A DNA stretch of 59,331 nucleotides, filler included, from Basidioascus undulatus (taxonomy: Eukaryota): the NCBI GenBank assembly GCA_000826855.1. It is 6 parts of 6 records of this genome, joined end to end, with 100 filler letters (N's around TTAATTAATTAA, not from the genome) between each part and the next. Parts side by side here need not be neighbours in the genome. Positions count along the whole stretch, not along the records: positions 19,912 to 29,741 come from JTLS01001207.1; 5 more parts are not named here. One strand, written 5' to 3'. The notes under the pieces were generated by a model. It saw nothing but the letters and a program-made list of their open reading frames with translations, had not been told where the DNA came from and did no database searches. Shown here piece after piece: positions 9,876-59,331 of the stretch (position 1 is the stretch's first letter; each line of letters opens with the position of its first letter). A program made the position numbers and the translations under genes.

Positions 9876-9975
9876 NNNNNNNNNNNNNNNNNNNNNNNNN
9901 NNNNNNNNNNNNNNNNNNNTTAATTAATTAANNNNNNNNNNNNNNNNNNNNNNNNNNNNNNNNNNNNNNNNNNNN
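9876..9975. other. artificial contig linker (N44-TTAATTAATTAA-N44)
   Basis: Identical 100-bp spacer with stops in all six frames. Confidence 0.99.
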
Positions 9976-19811: not shown

Positions 19812-19911
19812 NNNNNNNNNNNNNNNNNNNNNNNNNNNNNNNNNNNNNNNNNNNNTTAATTAATTAANNNNNNNNNNNNNNNNNNNNNNNNNNNNNNNNN
19901 NNNNNNNNNNN
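19812..19911. other. artificial contig linker
   Basis: N44-TTAATTAATTAA-N44. Confidence 0.99.
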
Positions 19912-21115
19912 GGGTGTTAGTGTTACTCATGGGACGAGCGGAAGGGGCGCGAGCGTCAGCCATTCGGGCGCGAGGACTTTCGGGGGAGATGGGCAGGGGC
20001 GCGCGGTGCAGGATGAGCAGGGCGACGTGGGGATGGACGAGTCGTGATGAGGGGAGGGGAGGGGGAAGGTGTGTTGTGCTTGTTGTAGCTTGATATTGAC
20101 GAAACTACCCATTATTCTTGATGCTTGATGGGGTGGCGGCGGTGTGCATCGCACCGCATGTCAAGTTCGAAGCGCTCGACAACAGGGCGCGTCCTCTGAA
20201 GTGGTGTTAGTCGCGCTCTTTTTCTTTCTGCGCCGAAAGGGGAGCTGTTATGTTCTTTAGCAATCACGGCGACCGAAGAAAACGCGAAGGGTAGTGGCGA
20301 CGGTGAAGGCCGCGCCAAGGCTCCTTCCCCTCAACCTCACCTCGTCCACTTTTCGCCCGTTTCATTGAGCTCCTTCTACAGTAGTGCGTCTATGCATGGA
20401 TCGTTAGCTGAACTCATGGTTGGCCTTCAAGTGTTTACACGAGAGGACTGATCGAATTTGTGCGACGTTATCTTTCCGACAATCGCTGCTCATGTGCGAG
20501 CAGATGAATAGAGACGAGGCGCACAGTGATTCACAGTCGTGTCGACAGTGTGCATCACGGCGGATGAATCGGTCTTGGCTTTTCTACAGCCGTTGCTGAT
20601 ATAGCATTCTCTGAATTTTGGGGCAGTTCAAGGTATATTCAATAGCCAAAGCGTCTACCATGGACAACAAGTCGATATGACGGGCGAGGAGGAAGTAGAC
20701 GCGGGTTTCATGGACGCGCTTGCGGCCACATCGACTCTTGACCATTGCAGGGGGCCGCACCTTGTCTCCTGCCATCATCATTCGTTGCCTCCTCAAGGCC
20801 AACGTTTTACTCGAAATGACTGACGACTGCGCCTGCATCGGAGGCCGCATCGTGTCACGTCCTGCTATTTGTCTTGCTCAGGGCCAAGCCTCAGGGGTTC
20901 GCGTTTTTAGTGCGTCTTCCACGAGTTCCTCCTCGTCCGCCGCGGCCCTGGCAGCTGCCCCGTGACCTTCTCTGGTCGTCTCTCCTCTCGGCGATTCTTC
21001 GGGGTGCAGATGCGACGAGTAAAATTCAGCGTTTGGGACGCAGTATATAACGCTCGATCGAAGAGGCTTCTCACATCACGAAAGTCTTTCACCGTCTCTC
21101 GATCGCTTCGCCCTC

Positions 21116-24100
21116 ATGGCGCCCCTCACTTCGCTTGCTCTCGGAGCAACGATCGCTCTTGCGGTCACCGCGACCCCGATCTATCAAACTTGGAACGACC
21201 TGTCGCCCCGCGCCGAGGCGGGTCAGGCTGCGACGGCTTTCCAGGTCTACCACGGCGGCTACGACAACTTTTTCCATAGGGACAATGTCACTGCTGCGCA
21301 GGTGCTCTTTACCAGGTATGCTCTTTGAATGTAAGAGTCAAGAGCGGGTGCGTAGGACGTTGACATCTTTTACAGCCCGAACGACACCTCGAAGCTTCAA
21401 CGCTTCCTGGCGGCGTTTCCGGCTGGTAACAGCGGCGCGCTCATGTACTTCCTTCCTCAAGAGAAGAGCGTCGCAGCCGGTGCCGCCCCCCTCTCGGTCC
21501 AGCTTGTCGACGGCAAGCTAGAGCCTACCACAGCTCCTAACAACAACACCGGCGTCTCCGGCAATATGGTGCGTCACGCCTGCTGGTTTCTCGCACTCGA
21601 CTTGTACGCTGACATGACTCACAGTCCTTCAACGCCAACGCAACCGTCGGCGTTACGGTCCTAGGCTCCATTCGCACAGTCCGCGACTATGTTGAAGGCA
21701 AAGGAACCATGCACGAGAGTACGTCGATCACATTCTGCGGTCTACCATCGCAAGACTGACTTTGCTCCTGCGCAGTCTTCAACTATACCGTTACGACGCT
21801 GAACTCCTCCCACATCGAGCTGCACCGCACGTGGATCAACGGTACCCACTCCATGGATCTGACGCTCACCGCCTCTTCCGACCTCTCCTTCTCCGTCACG
21901 CCGTCCAACAACGGCTCTTTCACTCCGCCGAAGATCGACGTGGTCGTCCCCGAGGGGAAGACTGGCACGGCTCGCTGGACGGTGGTCTGCAACGAGACAA
22001 CGACCGAGGGTCTTGAGCCCCACCAGCTCTTCCTGACCGAGCCGCGGTCTGACAACCAGCCCGCGCTCGCGACCGCGCTGCAGGGCTTGGCGGATAGCAG
22101 GAACCCCAGGGCCAAGGAGGTCTCCTTCCTGGCGACGACCGAAACCTTCTTTGCTGGAGGCTGGCGATTCCTCACTTTAGGTCTCTTTTCCAGTTCGCTG
22201 CGATCGGATCCACTTACGCCTTCCCGTCCCGTTTTAACAGTACTTCGTGTGTTAACCAGCGAGATCTTCACCTGCTTTCGATACGCAATTCGCTGATGCT
22301 GTCCTTTCTGTTTATCTGCAGGGCCGTGATCAACTGATCACTCTGCGCCTTCTGATGCCGCTCCTCACGTCCGAGGCCATCGAGGCTTCCATCGGCTCTG
22401 TTATCCAACGTACCAACACCACCGGCGTAATCTTCTTGTCCTCTTGCAGCGATGGCAGTTGAAAGTGTGGCTGATTTGCCTTCCTATTTCCTCAGGCGCT
22501 CGCTCACGAGGAGACCATCGGCGAATACGCGTCTTTCGTCAACATTAACGAAGGTCACCCGGAGCTCGGCGCTACCCCCAATTTCGACTACAAGATGGGT
22601 ACGCCTCAAATCCCTTCCACCAGTGCATCCGCAGCTGACGCCATTCGCCTTTCACAGTTGACACCGATTTCTTGCTTCTCCCGGTTCTCTCTCACTAGTA
22701 GGACTCCTGTCACACTGCGTTGGACGAAGTCTCGCTAATGCTGCGTTACAGCTTCCTCCAGCTCCCGCAAGGCCAGGACCGTGCATCCGACTTCTTTGCT
22801 CGCAACTCCACCCTGCACAACGGGACTTTCGCCGAGCTCGTTCAGCTGAACATCCAGCGCGTGCTTGACCTCAGCGAACCTTTCGTAAGGAGCCGATGTC
22901 GCGTACTGTTTGATCCGCGCCCTAACATCTCTCTGCCTCTAGTCGAAAGAGCCTGTTTACCAGAACTTCATCCGCATTCGTCCCGACGTTCCCGTGGGCA
23001 ACTGGCGCGACAGTAACGACGGTCTTGGGTGCGTAGCTCCAGGACTTTGCTTCATAGCTCGCTTTCTGCTCCACGCTAACGCTCAAATGTTATGTTTCCA
23101 GGTGGGGAGTGTACCCCTACGACGTTCAGGTGCGCCTTGGAGAGCCGCAGGTAACCATGCTGACCCGAAGTTACTGACTCAAGCGAAACTTTCTCAGGCT
23201 TCACTCGTCCCGTCCTCGCTCCGCGCCATAGAGTCTCTCTCCAAGGCCGGAATCGTCAACAAGAAGTACGCCAAGCAGGCTAGCGCGCAGGCCGCGGCGT
23301 GGGAGACGCACGCTGCTCGTCTCTTTGAGGTCACCGTTCCGATCCAAGAAATCGAGTCCCGCGTCCAGGCGTACACGCAGCACCTAAACCTGTCGCAGTC
23401 GCTCCTCTACGGCGAGGGCAGCCTGAACGACACCGCGGTCGAGCCGCTGGGGCCCAAGACGTTCGACACCAAGACGTTCTATGCTCTGGCTTTGCGGGAG
23501 GACGGCTCAACGATCGAGGTGCGTTTCTCCGCTTGTATGTCCTCAAAACTAAACTAATCGTCCTCGCTCTGTAGATCCTTCACTCTGACGTTGGTTTCAA
23601 CCTACTCTACAACGACAACATCAGCGAGGACATGCTCTGGCGCATCATCGAGGCCCTTGCCCCTTACCCTCGCGGTCTTCTGACGTTCGTTCGCTGTGTG
23701 TTCCAATTTTTCCCCAAGCGCTGATCTGGATGTCGTGCTACTTTCAGGAATGTCGGCATGGTCGTCGCAAACCCTGCGATGGACACGAACACGACCAACT
23801 ACGATGTCCGTCCCGCGTTCCATCACACTCCGAGCATTCCTCCAGTTAACTCAAGAGACGCTTTCTACAGACGCTCAACCGCGGCGCATATCACGGCGTA
23901 CGAGCAGCACCTCGCCCCCTCGACCGACTACAGCTGACGTTCTGACCATCTCCCGCTTACAGTCAGTCACCTGGTCGTGGACGCAAGCTCTCATGGCCGC
24001 CGGTCTGGCGCGTCAGATCGGCTTCTGCGATCCGACTGCGCCGCAGGTCGACGTGAACGTGGCAAAGTCGAATCCGGCCTGGTGCAAGGATGATGAGCTC

Positions 24101-24462
24101 GTTTCGGCGCTCAAGCGTGCTCAGACGTTGCTGTGGTCCGCCATCAACGGCGCGAAGGAGGGTGCGTCGCTCCCCAGTTTATTTTGAACCTCCGTCCCGT
24201 TTTTGACAGTCCTTTCCCTTGCCTCGCGCCTCTTGCAGAGCGGTTCGTCGAGGTCTTCTCGTGGGACTTTGACGCCAACGCTGGCCGTTTCTCGCCCACC
24301 GATCTCGCACGCTTCTCGCCGGACGGAACTGAGTCTGACGCCATCCAGCTTGTGAATCTTGTCGCATCCCGGTTGTGGCTGTGATACCTTCGCTGACGAT
24401 GATCTTGCACTGCACAGTGGAGTTACGGCTTCCTTGCTCTCGCCGATCCGACCGCTGCATAG
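21116..24462 (+). CDS. secreted six-hairpin glycosidase-like protein (often annotated glycogen-debranching-enzyme-like)
   Basis: Signal peptide MAPLTSLALGATIALAVTA. Motifs AAFPAGNSG, FAGGWRFLT|YF|GRD, HEETIGEYA, DYKMVDTDFLLLP, VGNWRDSNDGLG, WSWTQALMAAGL and ESDAIQL|WS. Confidence 0.75.
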
Positions 24463-24747
24463 TGAACATACAGACAGACTCTTAGAGGACATGGATGAAT
24501 GATTCTGCTTGTGTTGTCATTGTTAATTCTATTTGGCTGCGGCAACGAAAGTTCGAAATACAGGGAAGGCCAAGAAGTAAAGCAAGTGGCGGGGGGTATC
24601 CTTTCCGCGATCCGCCAAGCCGAACCGAAAAAGATGAACAGAACACGGAGGTAGAAAGTTCGTTGCGGCGCTGAAAGGGAAGGAGAAAAATAAAAGATCC
24701 GCTCGAGCAACGAGATAACATGCATGGACCAAGGGCGTGTAGGAAGA

Positions 24748-26688
24748 TTATGCCAGCGGGACCTGCTTGTACGAGCGGCGGAACATGCCGTCGATGTGCT
24801 CGAGGTAGTAGGCGCCCGGCCAGACGTTCTTGGGCTCGCCCTTCGGAGAGTAGTCCTTCGAGTTGTGGTTCTCCTCGCGCAGCTGAACGCCGGGTTGAGA
24901 GCTTGTCAGGAAAGAGGTGCGATAAGGAGAATGGAAGGGAACGCAAGCCGTACCTTCAGAGCGGTGACGTAGTGGTCGACCGGGACGACGTCCATCGACG
25001 CCAGGCGCTCCTTCAGGTTGAGGTTCTTTGCGAGGCCGTCGACCGGGCCAACAACGCGGAGGCTGAAGAAGGAGGCGGCGAAGCCTGAGCCGTAGGAGAA
25101 GCAGCCGAGCTTCTTGCCTTGCTGTTGGCCGAAAGCGTCACACGCTGGTCAGCAGCGACCTCCAGTCAGCTTTGTCGGTGATGACGCACCAAGTCCGCAG
25201 AGGAAACGTTGGAGAGGAGGGAAGCGAGACCGCCGTAGAGGGACGCGGTGTACATGTTACCGATGCGCTTGACGACGTCGGCGGTGGGCTCGACCTGGCG
25301 CATGTAGCCCTCCTTCGCGAGCGCGACGAAGGTCTTCTCGATCGCCTTGTCGGTGTAGGTCTTGGTGCGGGGGAGGGAGGCGATGGACTGGTCGACGGAC
25401 GCGAAGCGCTCGGCGGAGGGGTTGGAGAGGAAGTCGTTGTAGAGCTATCGGGAGAGAACACGCCGACCTGACGTCAGTTTCATTTTGACCTGAAACGCGA
25501 GGGGTGGGAGAAGATCTAGATGACGCACGAGACGAGCGTGGCCCTTCTGGACGAGCTTGCCGTAGGGAGAGTGGAAGAGGATGTAGTCGAAAGAGTCGGA
25601 GGTCGTCGCCGCCTTCGGGTCAGCGTGGTGGCCGTTCGAAGTGCCGTTCACCGCGCGCTTCGCGACCTTCTCGCGGTAGCGGTCGTACACCGCGTCAACC
25701 GCGCCGAGGTAGCACTTGATCGTCAGAGGGCCGTCGACCTCGGGACTGCAAAAGGACCGCGTTCAATTCGTGCACCGCAAGGAGCCTGAACAGGAAGACG
25801 TACTACTCGGAAGACAGGTCAGGCTTGAAGAAGTCGTAAGCGTTCTCCATGTGAGTGCCACGGATCGCTGTGCAATGCAATTGTGACAAATGTCAGTCTA
25901 CTGCACCTTTGGAAAGGCTGCAATACGCCCTGCCATGGCGAAGCAACCCAGACCACCTGTTTTCCCAAGAAGATCAAGCGACTCACGGTCAATGACAATC
26001 GGCGCGTCAGGGCCGATCCACAGAGCAATAGCACCAGCACCACCGACGGGGCGCGCACCACCCTCAGCGTAGATGGCGATGTCGGCGGCGACGACGATCG
26101 CGTCCCGGCCGTCCCAGGAGGAAGACTCGATCCAGTTCACGGCGTTGAAAAGCGCGGCAGTGCCACCGTAGCAGGCGTTCTTGGAGTCGATGCCCTCGAT
26201 GTCGTGGTTGCCCGAGGCCGCAAAGAGGTCCATCAGCGTCGTCTTGACGGACTTGGACTTGTCGATGATCGTCTCGGTTCCGACGTCAAGACGGCCGATC
26301 GACTTGGGGTCGATGTTGTACTTCTCGAGCAGGGAGGAGGTCACTGTGATGGCAAACGATAATGGGAGCGCGTAAGCTACCCGGGGGCTTTTCCTTCAAC
26401 AGCCAAGCAAAAGACGCACCAGAGAGAGCGAAGGAGTTGATGTCTTCCCGGTCGTCGGTGAAGGCCATGAACTTCTGGCCGAAGCCGATGGTGTACTTGC
26501 CAGTGGGCGCGCCATCAAAGACCTCGAGGTCCTCTTGGGAGATGCACTGTGGTCACCGCCAAAATCTCCCATCTCAGCACACCTCGCCATCTCGCGGTCT
26601 CGAGAAAGGAAGACGGTCGTACGCGCTTGGGGACGTGAATCTGGATACCCTTGATACCGACGTTCTGGGGGCGGGAGGAGGAGGCCAT
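24748..26688 (-). CDS. ERG13: hydroxymethylglutaryl-CoA synthase
   Basis: [38 protein letters not shown], catalytic [34 protein letters not shown] and GNMYTASLY. Confidence 0.97.
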
Positions 26689-27854
26689 GGCGGATAGCGC
26701 GGAGGGTGGATTAAACGGAAAACAAGGGGAGAAGATGGAAGGGGATAGTGGTGGTATGAGGGCGAGGAAGGATCGAAAAGCGAAGGGAGAGATTGCGGTT
26801 GGGCGGCCCAGGATGAGGCGACTTCTCGCTTCCCCGCCTCGAAGGCACGCGCCGCCGCAGGGGCGCGTGCGTGGCCGTGCCATTTGCCGCGCCCCAGCAG
26901 GATCAGCTCATTTCTCCCAATTGTTGCCTTTCTTCTCTCTTGGGTTTCTTGCTCGTTTACTGCTGGGCATCGCCTCAGTGGACATCTTCGTCTGCTCTAT
27001 CACACCCTCCATACAGGCTGGCTGCGCCTCACCTGCAGACTGCAGGACAAAGTTAAAGAACTGAGACACTTGACGGCCTGTCAAAAGATCTACGACTTCA
27101 GTGAGTTTTCAGTGACAGCACCATGGGACGAATCGAGGAGGAATGTAGGAATGGAATGAGATGAGGGGTGCTTGTAAGCGTGTTCATATGCATCATGCCG
27201 TCCACGGCAACCTAGCAATCTTCGAAGTTTCCGCTGCATACAGGCGGTCCAAACGGGAGACCGAGACGGGTTGGAATCGCTCGAGAGGACTAGGAATTCA
27301 GGAGCGAGATACGGATGCGAATTGCATGTCCAGAATACTACGTCAGTACGCTCTGTCGTTCCTGGAGGAAGTGCCGAGCATACTCCCGGGACGAGCTCTC
27401 CTGACAGGTCCAGCGCATGCCGGGGGTGTGTGGAAGCCTGGCAAGCTAAGGAAGTGTATGATTGGAAAGTCGGACACAATAGTAACTTCTGGTGAGATTG
27501 AGATCCAGGGTTTGGGCTCAACTGCTCAGTTAGATATATGCGGTATTAGGGTCAAGCAGAAGATACTGTGCACCGGGCGAGCGACGTCGACGGTTTGAGA
27601 TTGGTGGTGTCACCCGAGATTGCGGGTTCCAGCAGTGTTCCAGCACCTTGCCAACACTGTCGGAGATCCAAGGAGAAAGGCTGTGGGAGTGCTGTGGCTG
27701 CTGTGAGCCTGTAAAGCGGCAACACGCGACGCCTCACCGCTTGCCTCATGGGCAAGATGAACCGCGTGGCGACAATAAAAGGAGTGCAGTCTCACCATTC
27801 ACTTTTTTTTTTCCCTCCACAACGAGTTCATCCAAAGCACCATCTATCTACACC

Positions 27855-28775
27855 ATGTCGGCCTCCCCACCGGACCCACCAGCCAAGCTCAACATGGCCC
27901 CGATCTACGCATTCAGCGTCGGTGTCTACCCCGTGCTGGTATGGACGCGCCTGGTCGTCTTCCACCAGCCCCAGTCCCGCGTCCTGCGGTCGGTCCTGGG
28001 GCCAGCGCTGGACGAGATATTTTGAAGCCCTGCTTACGAGGTACACCATACCCATACTTTTTGAATCTCGACGCTGTTCTGAAGTGTGCTTTCTTTTTCG
28101 CAGCCGTCCCCGCGTTTCTAGGAGCATGGGGCGTGCACTCCCTCACGGCTGAGGCTGTTTCGGCGGTGTTTCGCAAGTGGCTGCCCGAGGGTGGCCCGGA
28201 AAAGCACTGGGCGTCCTCCGCGTAGACCCTGGCGGGTTGGCACTCAGCTTCGGGCTAACGCTCGCGCTGCATGTTGCGCTCCAGCCGTTGGAAGTGCTTG
28301 CTGAACGGTAGGCTCACTAACCTATTTTGTTGAATAATGATAACTTCAAACTTATATGCATTGCACATGCGTCACCAGTCTCACCATCCTCTCCGGCTCC
28401 GCCCCACTTTCCGCTCTTCTCACGCCAGCAGAGCGAGCGCGGCACACCCTTCTCTACAAGCACGTGCTCCCCGCGCTCCTCCAGTCCATACTGCAGCTGC
28501 TCTCCTCCCTCGTACCCACGTGCAAGTCGTCGTCCGTCGCCCTCAAGGCCGTACGGGCGTTTCTCGCCGTCACCACTACCCGACTATACGCAGCCGATCG
28601 CTGCGCACGCAAGCGTGCCTATGCAGACCGACCGGAAGGTGTAGGGGGGGCGTGGCAGATCGCACGCGTTTTGATGGAGTCCGGAGAGGGATGGTGGATT
28701 GCGGGCTGGGTGACCTTGGTTTCGATCGCGGCGTCGGCGCTGCAGTGGCACTTCGATCTCAAAAGTGTGAAATGA
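27855..28775 (+). pseudogene. disrupted membrane-protein gene (weakly mitochondrial-carrier-like)
   Basis: Hydrophobic coding-like segments in three frames, interrupted by stops at about 28025 and 28225. Confidence 0.3.
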
Positions 28776-29057
28776 AACACTTGCTCCTCTCCATCTTGCA
28801 CCTCCTCTCACCCATACGCGTTATGTTGTAAAGACCTACGGGCGTGAGGTAGTGAACGTTTGGTGTGTGTGTTCCACAGTTTGAGAGAGATTTGTCGGTT
28901 GGAAGACTTGACTTCAAAGGAACAAATGATCACAAATTACGGGTTTCTGCATTTTCAGTCTCCGTTGTAGTGAGTAGATTCAATATTGCTTGCGAGATTA
29001 ACTCAAGCCGTGGCGAAACTTGGAATATGTTTGAAAACTAGCAGTCATCACTTTCAG

Positions 29058-29070
29058 TATTGCAGTGGTA
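29058..29070 (+). promoter_or_regulatory. putative external Pol III A-box in the leader of the permuted tRNA
   Basis: TATTGCAGTGGTA resembles the A-box TRGYnnARTGG and lies about 35 nt upstream of the B-box GGTTCGATCC (29092-29101). Confidence 0.5.
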
Positions 29071-29077
29071 CTTCGTA

Positions 29078-29150
29078 ATCAGGGGGTTGCAGGTTCGATC
29101 CCTGCGTCGGTCACGGCCGGCTGGCTCAATGGTAGAGTATCTGACTACGA
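29078..29150 (+). tRNA. circularly permuted tRNA-Arg(ACG): 3' half 29078-29113, 1-nt linker, 5' half 29115-29150
   Basis: The reassembled halves form a full 72-nt cloverleaf: acceptor GGCCGGC/GTCGGTC plus A73, D-arm GCTC-AATGGTA-GAGT, anticodon stem TCTGA/TCAGG with loop CT-ACG-A|A, variable GGGTT, T-arm GCAGG-TTCGATC-CCTGC. Confidence 0.9.
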
Positions 29151-29155
29151 TTTTT
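29151..29155 (+). terminator. RNA polymerase III oligo-T terminator
   Basis: TTTTT immediately follows position 37 of the downstream-located 5' half. Confidence 0.7.
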
Positions 29156-29370
29156 GTATCTTTGTTCATCTTTCTTGCGCATGGGACAACCAGCCACGAT
29201 TTGGTACCTATTGAGCGGCTCACACCAGCAGCGCCTGCGCTTTTACACATTCCCAAGAGATCGGCAATTGTTCGGCTCATGAATCGAACTGCATCTCAAC
29301 ACAGAGACCGAACATATTGCATTCATGCAAGGGACAGTCAAGAGGACCTGCGCAGCTGACGTATACATGC

Positions 29371-29741
29371 TCAACCTAGGTGTCGCTCACACCACCCCAA
29401 TCCCCTTGTCGTCCTCAGCGGTCCTCTCGTGCCAGTCCGAGTCCCTCTTGACGTCTTGGTATATGCGGGACCAGAGCGCCCCTTGAAGTCGCTCCTCCTC
29501 CAGCTAACAAGGACCAGCGCCACAAAAATGACTGGCCAAGACGCCACCAGAGTTCCAATAGTGACGGCCACAATCGCCAGGTGGTTGTTGCGAAGACGAA
29601 GGGGCCCAAGGCATGTCCAAGCGCCGGAGAGGGCAATGACAGTCCCAAAGACGACGAGGACAGCGGTGGGAAGATAGACGGGTCGCTGTCGGCGGTCGTG
29701 CTGGAGGGAAAGCGAGTGGTCGACGCGATGGGCAAGGCAGG
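29371..29741 (-). CDS. partial Ser/Thr-rich single-pass membrane protein (3' end)
   Basis: An S/T/P-rich segment is followed, in another frame, by hydrophobic VAVTIGTLVASWPVIFVALVLV and a basic tail. Confidence 0.3.
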
Positions 29742-29841
29742 NNNNNNNNNNNNNNNNNNNNNNNNNNNNNNNNNNNNNNNNNNNNTTAATTAATTAANNN
29801 NNNNNNNNNNNNNNNNNNNNNNNNNNNNNNNNNNNNNNNNN
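29742..29841. other. artificial contig linker
   Basis: N44-TTAATTAATTAA-N44. Confidence 0.99.
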
Positions 29842-39606: not shown

Positions 39607-39706
39607 NNNNNNNNNNNNNNNNNNNNNNNNNNNNNNNNNNNNNNNNNNNNTTAATTAATTAANNNNNNNNNNNNNNNNNNNNNNNNNNNNNNNNNNNNNN
39701 NNNNNN
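39607..39706. other. artificial contig linker
   Basis: N44-TTAATTAATTAA-N44. Confidence 0.99.
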
Positions 39707-46779: not shown

Positions 46780-46875
46780 GGGCCTGACCGGGAATTGAAC
46801 CCGGGACCTCTCCCATGCAAGTGCTCAGCACCGGTGTGACCCGAAGGGAAAATCATACGACTAGACCATCAGGCC
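46780..46875 (-). tRNA. tRNA-Pro(CGG) with 24-nt intron (46816-46839)
   Basis: Acceptor GGCCTGA/TCAGGCC, anticodon stem TTCCC/GGGAG with loop TT-CGG-G|T, T-arm CCGGG-TTCAATT-CCCGG, followed by TTTTT. The D-loop has C in place of G18. Confidence 0.9.
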
Positions 46876-49469: not shown

Positions 49470-49569
49470 NNNNNNNNNNNNNNNNNNNNNNNNNNNNNNN
49501 NNNNNNNNNNNNNTTAATTAATTAANNNNNNNNNNNNNNNNNNNNNNNNNNNNNNNNNNNNNNNNNNNN
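49470..49569. other. artificial contig linker
   Basis: N44-TTAATTAATTAA-N44. Confidence 0.99.
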
Positions 49570-55136: not shown

Positions 55137-58100
55137 TTACGCGAAGCCAAAGCCCGTTCCACCCTCGTTGATGGCAATGAGAAGCTGCCGCCGGAGCATC
55201 TCGTAGCTGGAGTATTGCCCGAGGTCAAGCTGCCGATGACCCCAAAGTCAGGCGAGCCCCTAGACAAAACAATTTTGGTGGACGTACCTGATTGAAGCAA
55301 GTGTGAGCTTGCGGCAGCTTGTCCTCGTCGTACGAGCGATGGATGTTGAAGCGCTGGACGCCTTGAGATCCCTGCAGAGCGCCGAAGCCCTCCAGCGGTA
55401 CGCTGTCGAGAGAACAGTCAGTGAGAAGCCCCAAGCAGGAACGAGCGAGGATTACGTACCGACTCGAGCCCGTGACGAACTGGAGGAAGGACGCCCGCTC
55501 GGTCTGGTCGAACGACCGCAAAGCACGCCTGCAGGAAAAGGAAATGAGCTTTCGGATCACCGGCGAACAGTCGATTGCACATACCAGAACCATTGGATGA
55601 CAGCGTCCGACGAGTTGAAGCCAACGTAGTCGGTGTGCCTGAGAAGGACAATGCACATGAGCCCCGTGCCAAAGAGCCTGCGAGGACCATACCAACTTAC
55701 GCCCGCCAAGAGTCAACGTCGATCGTAGGCAAGCCGGAGATGAGCAGCTCCAATCTGTTTCCCGATACACGTCAGCAATGAACGGTTCACTTAATGAGAG
55801 ACAAATGAGGCGTACTCATTCTCGCTGAAGATCTTGACGAGCTCCGCCGGGATGATGTCGTGGAAGCCCTCGAGAAAACTCGTGGTCTGCTGCTCGATCG
55901 CCTTCGTGAGACGGTGCTCGGTGACGAGCCTGACATATTCGCGCTTGTTCGACTCGGTGACCGGGGTCTGGCTACCGTCCGTCTTGAGGTCGATGACCTT
56001 GGTCTCGCCGAACTCGTCCGATTCGACGCTGAACGTGAGGTCGAGTACGTCCGTGATGTCGTTCTCGAGCATCCAGACCTGTAGCGGGACCGGTAGAGCG
56101 ATATCAGTAACGGCTCAAAAGATCGAGAGAGAATTATGTGACGCACCAGGCTCTTGTAGTATTCGAGATCGACCGACTCGAGGTCTCGGTAATCGACGCT
56201 GCGGCCGAGGATGTGCTTGTAGAACGAGCGCGTGAAGTGAGCGTCGAGCAAGCGGCCGTCGTAGATTGCCTTGCCGATGATGCGACCGACAAACTTGAAG
56301 AAGCTGAGATGCTCGGGGTTGACGTATGATGCGCGGTTGGGCTGGTACGTGAGCTTGTCGGCGTCGATCGGCTGCAGCGGGGCAAACGGTGAGCATCTAC
56401 CGGACAAGACGAGCGGAGAAGAATGTACCTGGAAGAGAGCGTAGTTCGGGTTAAACATCCGCTGGGCGAGGACCTGGTACCATTCGCGAGCAACACCGCC
56501 GGCGTCGACGCCCTCCTCGTCATAGAACCGCACACTGAGCTTGCCGAACTTGACCTCGTCGCCTGATCGCCGTTGGAAGTAGCGGAACGAGTCTTCGAAT
56601 ACGTACTGCCGGCGGACGTTGACGTGGAGCGTGCCGTAGTGCTCGCGGGGCGACTTGCGCTGGCGCAGGCGCTGCGTGAAGAAGCTACGCTTGTTGTCGA
56701 ACTCGAGCATGCGCGGGTTCTGGACGAGCAGCGAGAACGACCCGCTCATGAGCGACGGGTTGTTGCGAACCATGACGTTCAAGATCTTGCGGTGGCGCTC
56801 GGTGAAGTCAATGAAGACGTCCCCGATCGCGTCCGACGCCGACGTCGGCGACCGCGGCGACCCAACAGAGCGAAGAGCGCGAGCAGCAGCGGTCTGCGGG
56901 CTGACGTACTTGCAGACGACCATGAGCGACTCGATAAGCGGGAGGAGCACGGTGGCGACGTGGATCATGTCGCCCTTGTCCTCGATCACCGCCAAAGCGT
57001 CGCCGAGACGGCGCCACAGGGGGGCGAACTGCGCAATTGCATCGCTAGTCAGCATCAGCGCTCGAAAGCTTAAATAATCAGCGCTCGAAAGCGTAAATAT
57101 GGGCGGACAAACCTGGAAGCTCTCGTAGATGGCGTTCACCTTCGCCTCGTCCGTCACGCTCTCCTGCACGCCTACAGCGAGCGCTTGCGCGGGCGCATCC
57201 GGCCCGACGGCCGGCGCAGGAGCGAGGGCAGCCGCGGCCTGAGCGAGCGTGTTCGGCGCACCGGGCGCATCAGCACCACCTGGCGCTGCCGCCCCCTCGG
57301 CACCCGACGTGCTCGCCTCGGCAGCGGGAGTCGACTTCGGCTTGCTGTACATGTAGTCGATCGTCTTGAGGACGCGTAGCAAGCGAGCCTGCAGCGACGA
57401 CGCAGGGAGTAACTTGGCGAGCGTGGAGCCACGAACATCGCTGCCGCTCGACGCCGCTTCGAGCGCGGTCGTCAGCTCCTCGACCTCGACGAGAAGCGCC
57501 GAGCCGAACTCTTGTGCGCGTTGGCGCAGCTCGCCAGCGATGGCGTCGCGCGCGTCCGGGATGTACGACAGGTGCTGGATGAGGCTGAGGGTCTGCTGGA
57601 ACGTTTTGCTCGAGCACTCGCCGACGGTGAGGATGTTGACAACGAGCTTGAGGATCGGGTGCGGCACTTGCGGCGGGACGGTAAGGGCGGACGGGTCCTC
57701 CTGCGGGGCCTCGCCTCCGGGACCAGGTGCGGGAGACGGAGCGCCCGCCTCGGGCTCAGTGGGAGCCAACTGAGTCTCAGCGCTCGCGTCGGGCGCCTCG
57801 GGATGCGCAGCAGTGCCCGCGGATGGGGCGTCGGACTTGGGAGCCTCGGCCTTCTTCAGCGTCCCGAGCGGACGCGTGATGTTCGCAAGTAGCGTTGTAA
57901 ACGAGTCCATCATCGCCTGCGTCTTGAAGAGCGTCGGGCGGTCGAGGAGGCTGAGCAGGATGACGATCGGGAACCGGACGGGCGCCGGCTGTTTCTCCTT
58001 GCCCTTGCCCTTCTTGGACGGCCGCGGCTTGACGCTCGCTGACAAGTCGTGCTCGGTCAAGAAGAACAGAGAGGCTTGCTCGTTCGCGGCGACGAGGGCG

Positions 58101-59331
58101 GCGAGCGCTTCGAAGCAGCTTTGCGCGATAATGTTCGGCAGCGTCTCCGGAGGAAGCTGGGCCAGAACGGGGCCGGCGGGGCTGTCGAACGTCGCCTTGC
58201 GCTTCGGTGTCGCCTTTGGCGTGGCAAACGCCGTCGGCGCCGGTATAGGCTTCGGGGCACCCGGTCGCAGCGACATCTGCGAGAAGCTTCGGTCGACCGC
58301 GGGAAGATCGCCAGTACCCTCCTGGAGGATGTTGAGCAGCAAGCTTAGGAGCTCTACGCGGGTCTTCGAGTTCTCCGCGAGCTGCGAATATCGTTCAGGT
58401 GAGGATGGATGGTTTGCCGCAACGAGAGCGAAGCGAAAGTGACGTACGTTGATGAGGATCTTGTTGATGTGACTCTTGCGGAAGAGTTGAGGGTGGAAGA
58501 GAAGCCGAACCAGAGTCGAGAGGCCGCCTTTGTCGAGGAGCTGCATGGCGTCCCGGTGAACAGCTTTTCTCGGCTGCGGCTGCCCGCCCGGGTGCCCGCC
58601 CGTCCTGCGCGCCAGCCGCGCTTCCATCGGTGCGTAGCGACGGTGACGATCGCGCAGCGCATCCACCTCGGCGATGACGGCGGGCGGAAGAGTTTGGAGC
58701 ATCTCTTCAGGCTGGTCGAGCAAGACGATTTGGCGAAGGCTCGGGTCGAGCGAAGCGAGGAAGCTCGCAGGGTCCATGTCGTCCGCTTGCGCTCCGGCCT
58801 GTCCTCCCTCCGGCTGCCGCGCGGCGGCTTCGGCCCGCTCCCGCCGCATCTGCTCAATAGCCTCCTGCTGCAGGACTTCGGCGCGGAGCTCGGCCGGAAG
58901 GGCGTCGAGGAACTCGACCGAGATGCCGGTAGGCTGCTCGGCGCTCGCTGGAGTAGGCTGGGTCGATGTCGAGACCCGAGCGCTGGCCGCGGCGGCGGAG
59001 CTAGCGGCGCGGCGCGTTTCGCGGAAGTGTTGGTTGATGACTTCTTCGCGCATGTCGTCGGGAAGCGCCTCGAGGAACCTAGACAACACGGCTCAGTTAG
59101 CGCATGCTAAGGCATAAAGCGTTACGGCGAAAGCCCTACGTTGGGTCGATGCCGGTGTCCGTGATGTCGACTTGCTCGCCGTGGACGGTGACCGTCACCC
59201 GCTCAGGTGCCGGATCCGAGCCGCTCGCCTCAGCGGGCACGCCCCCTCCGGGAGAGGTCGCCGCCGATTCGGGGGCAGCGGGCTCGCCGGCGGCTGACTC
59301 GGCTGGGGGAGCAGGAGGGAGAGCTCCAGAC
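55137..59331 (-). CDS. TOM1: HECT E3 ubiquitin ligase Tom1/HUWE1, C-terminal part
   Basis: UBM repeats ([37 protein letters not shown]) and [19 protein letters not shown] motifs [19 protein letters not shown] and catalytic [10 protein letters not shown]. Ends GTGFGFA*. Confidence 0.97.

Follow-up and report, generated by a model that had tools for sequence, protein, structure and literature searches.

Permuted tRNA genes, where the tRNA's 3' half lies upstream of the 5' half, are collected in a 2014 review (PMC3978253), parts of which were consulted. Table 1 of that review gives 34 such genes from Cyanidioschyzon merolae, four prasinophytes, the Bigelowiella natans nucleomorph and Thermofilum pendens. 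Their linkers measure 1 to 74 bp, the type II arrangement (break at 37/38) is the commonest, and none of the genes listed is an Arg(ACG) gene or fungal. Such genes have been regarded as an oddity of some unicellular algae, a single nucleomorph and a single archaeon. A 2026 review of photosynthetic lineages (PMC13578239) names only algae as carriers in the sections consulted. A report of a fungal permuted tRNA gene was not found in the openly accessible literature, as far as the texts could be seen and with subscription journals outside the scope of the search; the author of a preliminary description of the DNA analysed here had likewise known of none. This DNA, a stretch of 59,331 bases from Basidioascus undulatus (assembly GCA_000826855.1), is called the window below. 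The locus under study, at 29062-29155 on the plus strand, carries the two halves of a predicted tRNA-Arg(ACG) in permuted order. It belongs to a family with many copies dispersed over this genome.

Among the described systems, the type II genes of Ostreococcus, Micromonas and the B. natans nucleomorph (Maruyama et al. 2010, per PMC3978253) share with the locus the upstream position of the 3' half, the 37/38 break, a short linker between A73 and G1, a T-stretch after the 5' half and a eukaryotic nuclear setting, in which cutting would fall to a ruler-type endonuclease. According to the consulted parts of the review, they differ from it in linker length (5-64 nt against 1 nt), in number (one or two copies against many) and in their junctions, which are described as helix-bulge-helix (hBH), whereas only two of the four pairs of the central helix of the locus are Watson-Crick. 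Their hosts are algae, the host here is a fungus and hence an opisthokont, and the isoacceptor is, as said, absent from the 34 listed genes. In C. merolae the same principle is at work, an upstream TATA-like element and a downstream T-stretch are the proposed signals, and the circular intermediate was shown by reverse transcription PCR (PMC3978253). Unlike the locus, C. merolae uses four junction positions with bulge-helix-bulge (BHB) motifs, and in the same parts of the review it is said to be without recognisable TFIIIC box-binding subunits, whereas TFIIIC and an endonuclease strict for 37/38 are to be expected in a fungus. The tRNA-Tyr(GTA) gene of T. pendens (Chan, Cozen and Lowe 2011, via PMC3978253) has the only intervening sequence of 1 nt in the list and resembles the locus in this respect. 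It differs in being archaeal, in its break at 59/60, in carrying an intron and in encoding CCA, so that its acceptor loop is longer.

Six pieces, each about 9.8 kb long, make up the window. They are connected by blocks of N with a TTAATTAATTAA spacer inside, at 9876-9975, 19812-19911, 29742-29841, 39607-39706 and 49470-49569; neighbouring pieces are not necessarily adjacent in the genome. The locus lies in piece 19912-29741, between two convergent reading frames which end at 28775 (+) and 29371 (-). On the plus strand the order of the unit is tRNA 38-73, one C, tRNA 1-37 and TTTTT (Table 1), and the coordinates are exactly those for which the preliminary description had claimed a 3' half in front of a 5' half with a single C between them. 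A T-stretch is present after the 5' half and none inside the linker, as is expected of permuted tRNA genes. Upstream, the AT-rich stretch has 9-10 A/T in 12-nt windows, against about 57% G+C for the whole window, and is situated 25-38 nt in front of the point where other copies begin to match this locus. With as many as three mismatches allowed, the window contains each half a single time, and neither occurred in any of 100 shuffles. The earlier statement that no other 5' half is found upstream and no other 3' half downstream therefore stands for the window, and an ordinary tandem tRNA array at this locus was ruled out, each half being single in the window.

Table 1. Positions of the elements of the permuted unit and of further features in the window.
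Feature	Position	Strand	Remarks
AT-rich, TATA-like stretch	29024..29037	+	Weak candidate for an upstream RNA polymerase III promoter element
Leader	29062..29077	+	Ends in TCGTA, complementary to tRNA positions 33-37; G(-3) can pair with C32
3' half of tRNA-Arg(ACG)	29078..29113	+	Positions 38-73: 3' strand of the anticodon stem, variable loop, T arm with B box, 3' strand of the acceptor stem, discriminator A73
Linker	29114..29114	+	One base, C, between A73 and G1
5' half of tRNA-Arg(ACG)	29115..29150	+	Positions 1-37: 5' strand of the acceptor stem, D arm with A box, 5' strand of the anticodon stem, loop through A37; anticodon ACG
T5 run	29151..29155	+	Directly after position 37; candidate RNA polymerase III terminator
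YrlA (RF02553) match	29059-29163		Score 33.5 bits; E = 1.2e-5 (401 bases searched) or 0.0017 (whole window searched)
Conventional tRNA gene	46780-46875	-	Has a 24-nt intron; 43.0 bits with RF00005 in a scan restricted to this region
HMG-CoA synthase exon	25898-26344	-	Same piece as the locus
TOM1/HUWE1-type HECT ligase	55790-59092	-	Stretch of 1101 residues
snR67-like match	28944-29055	-	Box C/D small nucleolar RNA model; just upstream of the permuted tRNA

The two halves were rotated by script and submitted to ARAGORN, which called a 72-nt tRNA-Arg(acg) with all four stems: acceptor 7 bp including two G-U pairs, D 4 bp, anticodon 5 bp and T 5 bp. The conserved tRNA nucleotides U8, G18 G19, U33, A37, T54 T55 C56 and A58 are present in the rotated sequence, and the predicted cloverleaf has an energy of -23.9 kcal/mol against a minimum free energy of -25.9. 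Rotation therefore yields the canonical cloverleaf that characterises permuted tRNA genes, and the complete 72-nt cloverleaf with four pairing stems proposed beforehand was recovered by an independent program. As controls, constructs of shuffled halves (0 of 300) and random 73-mers of the window rotated alike (1 of 3000) were given to ARAGORN and gave a single tRNA call between them. In the native order ARAGORN made no call, whether introns were allowed or not, and Rfam had no match at gathering scores, its tRNA model included; that standard tRNA scans would pass over the locus had been foreseen. Further permuted genes were sought in the window by running ARAGORN on 2324 self-duplicated segments, which returned only this locus and one conventional tRNA; under this procedure the anticodon was misnamed, the artificial intron having been misplaced.

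At a permissive threshold, the only Rfam match of the locus was to YrlA. YrlA is a bacterial Y RNA, bound by Ro60, with a tRNA-like domain which is itself permuted. In the alignment to this model, the T arm, the closed acceptor stem and the D arm follow each other as in the locus, and the outer stems are flagged as non-standard pairs. YrlA and the locus share the permuted succession of T arm, closed acceptor-like stem and D arm; YrlA differs in that it has no anticodon loop, is not rotated into a tRNA and is bacterial. The score is well under the curated gathering value of 69. Since YrlA is itself tRNA-like with the same order of arms, the match reads as an independent read-out of the predicted permuted architecture, not as evidence for membership in the family.

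The occurrence of the unit outside the assembly was followed in contigs built from reads, which are DNA and show presence and joins, not RNA. X1 is a sequencing run of this organism, perhaps the one from which the assembly was made (34.6 Mb of contigs in 24,453 records, single-copy depth 19), X4 and X5 are soil metagenome runs, and contigs of X3 were also used. Contigs were compared with the locus at ≥ 80% alike; some records were dropped by a filter, and 24 of the pieces were not displayed. A contig was taken to bridge the junction when it contained 31 letters on each side.

The flanks of the locus have a depth of 19.0-19.1 in X1. Over the core, 32 contigs of X1 were found, with summed depths of 1591, 1895, 3376 and 2841 in four bins of 29073-29156, values which are not copy numbers, as overlapping short contigs count twice. 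The most abundant junction words differ from the locus at no base (record 5; 53 nt, 29084-29136, depth 298 or about 16 times single-copy) or at one base (record 4; 56 nt, 29084-29139, depth 175 or about 9 times single-copy). Both records consist of junction words only and are below the length needed to count as bridging. Record 2, a contig of 4220 nt, bridges the junction over 29078-29155; it has five differences and therefore represents another locus. All nine loose ends of the partly fitting X1 contigs are at the outer borders of the unit, namely before 29062, 29063, 29073 (twice) and 29083 and behind 29152 and 29155 (three times). None of the nine contigs has a loose end at 29113-29115, the place at which a conventional gene would pass into its normal 3' or 5' flank. 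A joint 29150>29078, as expected from a conventional gene without an intron, is not listed for X1. The core contigs run on into several different flanks, and the change comes exactly at the borders of the tRNA. Of the 32 X1 contigs (≥ 80% alike to the core), none has the conventional order or, beside G1 or A73, a normal flank. As far as these data go, each 3' half of the X1 genome continues into C and a 5' half, and each 5' half is followed by a T-run, not by an intron.

The junction recurs in both soil metagenomes. In X4, record 13 bridges 29078-29155 with one difference. In X5, record 15 covers 29075-29152 with both halves identical to the letter and seven extra bases behind 29114, which makes a linker of 8 nt. 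This variant is found in none of the X1 contigs, and record 15 therefore stems from another genome. Constant halves beside a free linker are to be expected under selection on the tRNA. All eight readable copies (window, four X1 contigs, X5 records 14 and 15, X4) have retained G(-3), with leaders ending in TCGTA (window, four X1 contigs, X5 record 14), TTGTA (X5 record 15) or TCGAG (X4). In the window and in five of five other readings of the right flank, A37 is followed within about 8 nt by a T-run of ≥ 4. In two other X1 copies the agreement with the window sets in at 29062 and 29063, in others at 29073; the former two suggest that the shared unit has its beginning at the transcription start or close to it.

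A separate observation in X5 concerns record 16, aligned to 29077-29113. It is a conventional-order tRNA-Arg(ACG) of another organism, its 3' half has four differences from that of the locus, and a different 5' half, ending in the anticodon, stands before it. The contig comparison can therefore display the conventional order where this is present.

The identity of the host was examined by means of coding sequences. The HMG-CoA synthase exon is 85-90% identical to basidiomycete proteins, a range that refers to named matches with proteins of full-length size; a few long fused proteins of plants and insects rank higher by bit score, at 62-73% identity. For the HECT ligase, the named best matches are all from Agaricomycotina, with identities of about 45-50% across about 89% of the query. 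A protein atlas look-up indicated a eukaryote, with Basidiomycota as the commonest group. Since the exons match Basidiomycota best, the host is, on these comparisons, a basidiomycete fungus without a close relative among the named matches and not an alga, and the fungal origin assumed in the preliminary description is borne out. An algal contaminant contig as the source of the piece was ruled out by the same exons.

The layout, the predicted cloverleaf and the candidate terminator are what place the locus among type II permuted tRNA genes. That it belongs to a dispersed family of functional genes of this type for tRNA-Arg(ACG), with the break at 37/38 as originally proposed and as supported by the layout, is probable on the sequence evidence. 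A wider claim, that all tRNA-Arg(ICG) of this basidiomycete lineage is made from multi-copy permuted genes, is tentative and rates somewhat below an even chance. Judged by the layout, the new element is a permuted tRNA gene in a kingdom for which no case has been described in the literature covered above, present in many copies, with a linker of one base and without a BHB motif.

For the expression of such a gene the following route is proposed. RNA polymerase III would start near 29062, perhaps guided by the AT-rich element, and would stop at the T-run after position 37. The transcript would fold to a cloverleaf, in which the acceptor stem is closed by the linker, the anticodon arm is open and the end of the leader lies against the anticodon loop. 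The tRNA splicing endonuclease would measure from the tRNA body, use C32:G(-3) and remove leader and trailer at 37/38, whereupon a fungal ligase of the Trl1 type would join A37 to A38 and produce a circle of 73 nt. RNase P would open the circle 5' of G1, the linker C would stay as C74 and the CCA-adding enzyme would complete the end. In an alternative order the RNase P cut would come first, followed by splicing of the two base-paired halves. A34 would be deaminated to inosine.

A pair of pyrimidine 32 with purine -3 marks the 3' splice site in yeast and Xenopus. Eukaryotic endonucleases are described as measuring from the tRNA body by a ruler mechanism (PMC4090602, partly consulted; the figure legend names the A-I pair only). 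With no canonical BHB at the locus, the pathway, if real, would therefore rest on a eukaryotic ruler-type endonuclease, and a ruler-type cut at the permuted junction is conceivable, since C32 can pair with G(-3) and this G is kept in all eight readable copies. RtcB is reported in the consulted part of PMC3400036 to be missing from most Basidiomycota, so ligation would fall to a Trl1-type ligase. When 29062-29155 was folded with the cloverleaf enforced, the TCGTA of the leader was predicted to pair with positions 33-37 (5 bp) and C32 to face A38. This helix between leader and anticodon loop brings the energy down to -27.9 kcal/mol, the cloverleaf by itself having -21.3; the trailer consists of hardly more than a run of U.

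A number of points weigh against functional permuted genes and the proposed route. The favoured fold puts the 3' cut beside a 1x1 mismatch, and the lone C32:G(-3) pair is not favoured energetically (-18.9 kcal/mol). Neither a BHB nor an hBH motif was found, two of the four central pairs being Watson-Crick in the BHB register (C32:G(-3) and A34:U(-5)). The B box is upstream of the A box, the reverse of the TFIIIC binding order, and fungi are expected to use TFIIIC. With a linker of 1 nt, the acceptor stem would be closed by 2 nt, so that G1:C72 must open, and RNase P would have to cut an acceptor loop of 2 nt; in the comparable case of T. pendens, the opening of so short a linker is called unresolved in the consulted part of the review (PMC3978253). 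The evidence consists of DNA, and transcription, the circular intermediate and the mature tRNA are predictions from it. A conventional tRNA-Arg(ACG) gene less than 80% alike to the core may exist in the genome. Some copies are degenerate, with five differences in 78 nt (X1 records 2 and 3). In X3, record 9 (93 nt, about 4 times single-copy depth) reads 29106-29135, five other bases and then 29078-29135. In this contig a 5' half cut at position 21 leads directly to the next 3' half, and it could be either a graph artefact or a tandem form of the unit that has been truncated. The sources of the X4 and X5 contigs could be close relatives or strains rather than distant kin. Finally, the specific junction pattern gave no match in metagenome contigs of the JGI. 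A looser pattern gave at least 117 loci there, none with the fungal core and with a best blastn match of 25 nt; 101 of these loci are ordinary tandem tRNA pairs according to ARAGORN, and four of the other 16 were examined, none of which is related to the gene. Contigs of prokaryote genomes and viral contigs also gave no match.

The copies could instead be non-functional tRNA-derived repeats. One tRNA-Arg(ACG) would have been rearranged or retro-copied, for example as a copy of a circularised or dimeric RNA, then amplified, and its copies would now be decaying while conventional genes elsewhere supply the tRNA. Multiple copies with sharp borders and unrelated flanks are what short retroposed elements produce, and three copies agree from 29062 or 29063 to a T-run of variable length, as copies of an RNA polymerase III transcript would. 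The degenerate copies and the truncated, tandem-like record of X3 also fit, and with reversed A and B boxes and an acceptor loop of 2 nt, expression and processing would hardly be easy. However, decay is hard to reconcile with commonest junction words that differ at 0-1 bases, with halves that are identical in another genome whose linker differs by seven bases, and with G(-3) and the T-run in all readable copies. The conventional order or a normal flank at G1 or A73 was seen in 0 of the 32 X1 contigs. Around 29062-29155, target-site duplications and terminal repeats were searched for and only short repeats at chance level were found. With no flanking direct repeat, no body beyond about 95 nt and a permuted order, the unit does not have the properties of a tRNA-derived short interspersed nuclear element or of a retroposed pseudogene, and retro-copies would still require a transcribed permuted master gene. 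On balance, we consider this explanation unlikely.

A further reading takes the unit as a non-decoding, tRNA-like RNA which is used as transcribed, for example as a YrlA-like mimic, in which a leader:trailer stem would carry the T arm, the D arm and the closed acceptor stem, or as a genomic source of RNAs resembling 5' tRNA halves. In its favour, YrlA is the only Rfam match, the helix between leader and loop lengthens the anticodon stem in the predicted fold, and A box plus terminator could in principle yield a short 5'-half transcript. Yet the score is far under the gathering value, the outer stems of the model are non-standard and YrlA is bacterial. In addition, the whole anticodon stem-loop is kept (U33, ACG, A37) and the break is exactly at 37/38, both needless for a mimic, which makes this reading improbable.

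An assembly artefact or a contaminating algal contig is scarcely credible: the locus is indeed about 590 bp from the end of its piece, in line with the roughly 600 bp to the contig end given in the preliminary description, and the repeat breaks read-based contigs, but junction words occur at high depth in X1 and also in X3, X4 and X5, independently assembled X1 contigs match the window at the locus without difference (records 1, 5 and 8), the flank depth of 19 equals the single-copy depth, and the HMG-CoA synthase exon on the same piece is basidiomycete-like. Read support for the junction, which had been proposed as a check, was accordingly obtained in part; junction words are deep in X1 and the contigs agree, whereas no single X1 contig spans 28800-29400.

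Should all tRNA-Arg(ICG) of the lineage indeed come from permuted genes, this would be the first permuted tRNA system of fungi and of opisthokonts as a whole; it would also be the first whose high-copy workhorse gene has the permuted form. Endonuclease (Sen) and Trl1 ligase of the yeast type would routinely produce circular tRNA intermediates, RNA polymerase III would transcribe a gene with the B box ahead of the A box, and the one-base linker would be recycled as C74. A fungal family would show that the layout can arise and persist alongside the standard eukaryotic tRNA machinery. It would also offer a culturable and probably tractable system for the reading of reversed A and B boxes by RNA polymerase III, for the treatment of an open-ended 'intron' by the splicing endonuclease and for the opening by RNase P of a circle with a 1-nt linker. 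The permuted family would read about 60% of the arginine codons counted in two coding stretches of the window; in these confirmed stretches, CGT, CGC or CGA account for 63 of 101 arginine codons. Standard tRNA finders miss permuted genes, and fungal genomes could therefore be reported as seemingly lacking a major arginine tRNA.

Default scans in the window overlooked even a conventional, intron-bearing tRNA gene (Table 1), which was missed by ARAGORN without introns and by both whole-window Rfam scans. With introns allowed, ARAGORN calls it Ala(cgc) with the intron at 34/35; the sequence fits a tRNA-Pro(CGG) with the canonical 37/38 intron. A C is found at the expected G18 in the D loop. A TATA-like run is located about 23-34 nt upstream, G is at intron position -3, and T5 follows directly after the discriminator. 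In this one comparison, the permuted unit is punctuated in the way of the genome's ordinary tRNA genes. Introns occur in 132 of 143 tRNA genes (92%) of the basidiomycete C. neoformans according to the consulted part of PMC4090602. Intron-bearing tRNA genes of basidiomycetes resemble the locus in the splice at 37/38, in a purine at -3 opposite pyrimidine 32, in the complementarity of intron or leader to the anticodon region, in the T5 terminator and in the AT-rich element upstream. They differ from it in that the exon order is not reversed, whereas the 'intron' of the locus is open-ended and consists of leader and trailer.

The snR67-like match is weak, with 13.2 bits against a gathering value of 55 and E 3.2 on 401 bases. 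In its alignment a UGAUGA lies close to the 5' end and a CUGA close to the 3' end; the match is probably due to chance.

A permuted order of T arm, self-complementary closed acceptor-like stem and D arm was also seen in two metagenome contigs (L092:301-352 (-) and L092:16-227 (-); L087:301-348 (-)). These are unrelated to the fungal gene, ARAGORN calls no tRNA in them and no Rfam family covers them at gathering score. The L092 stretch is located immediately 5' of a HEARO RNA (144.4 bits).

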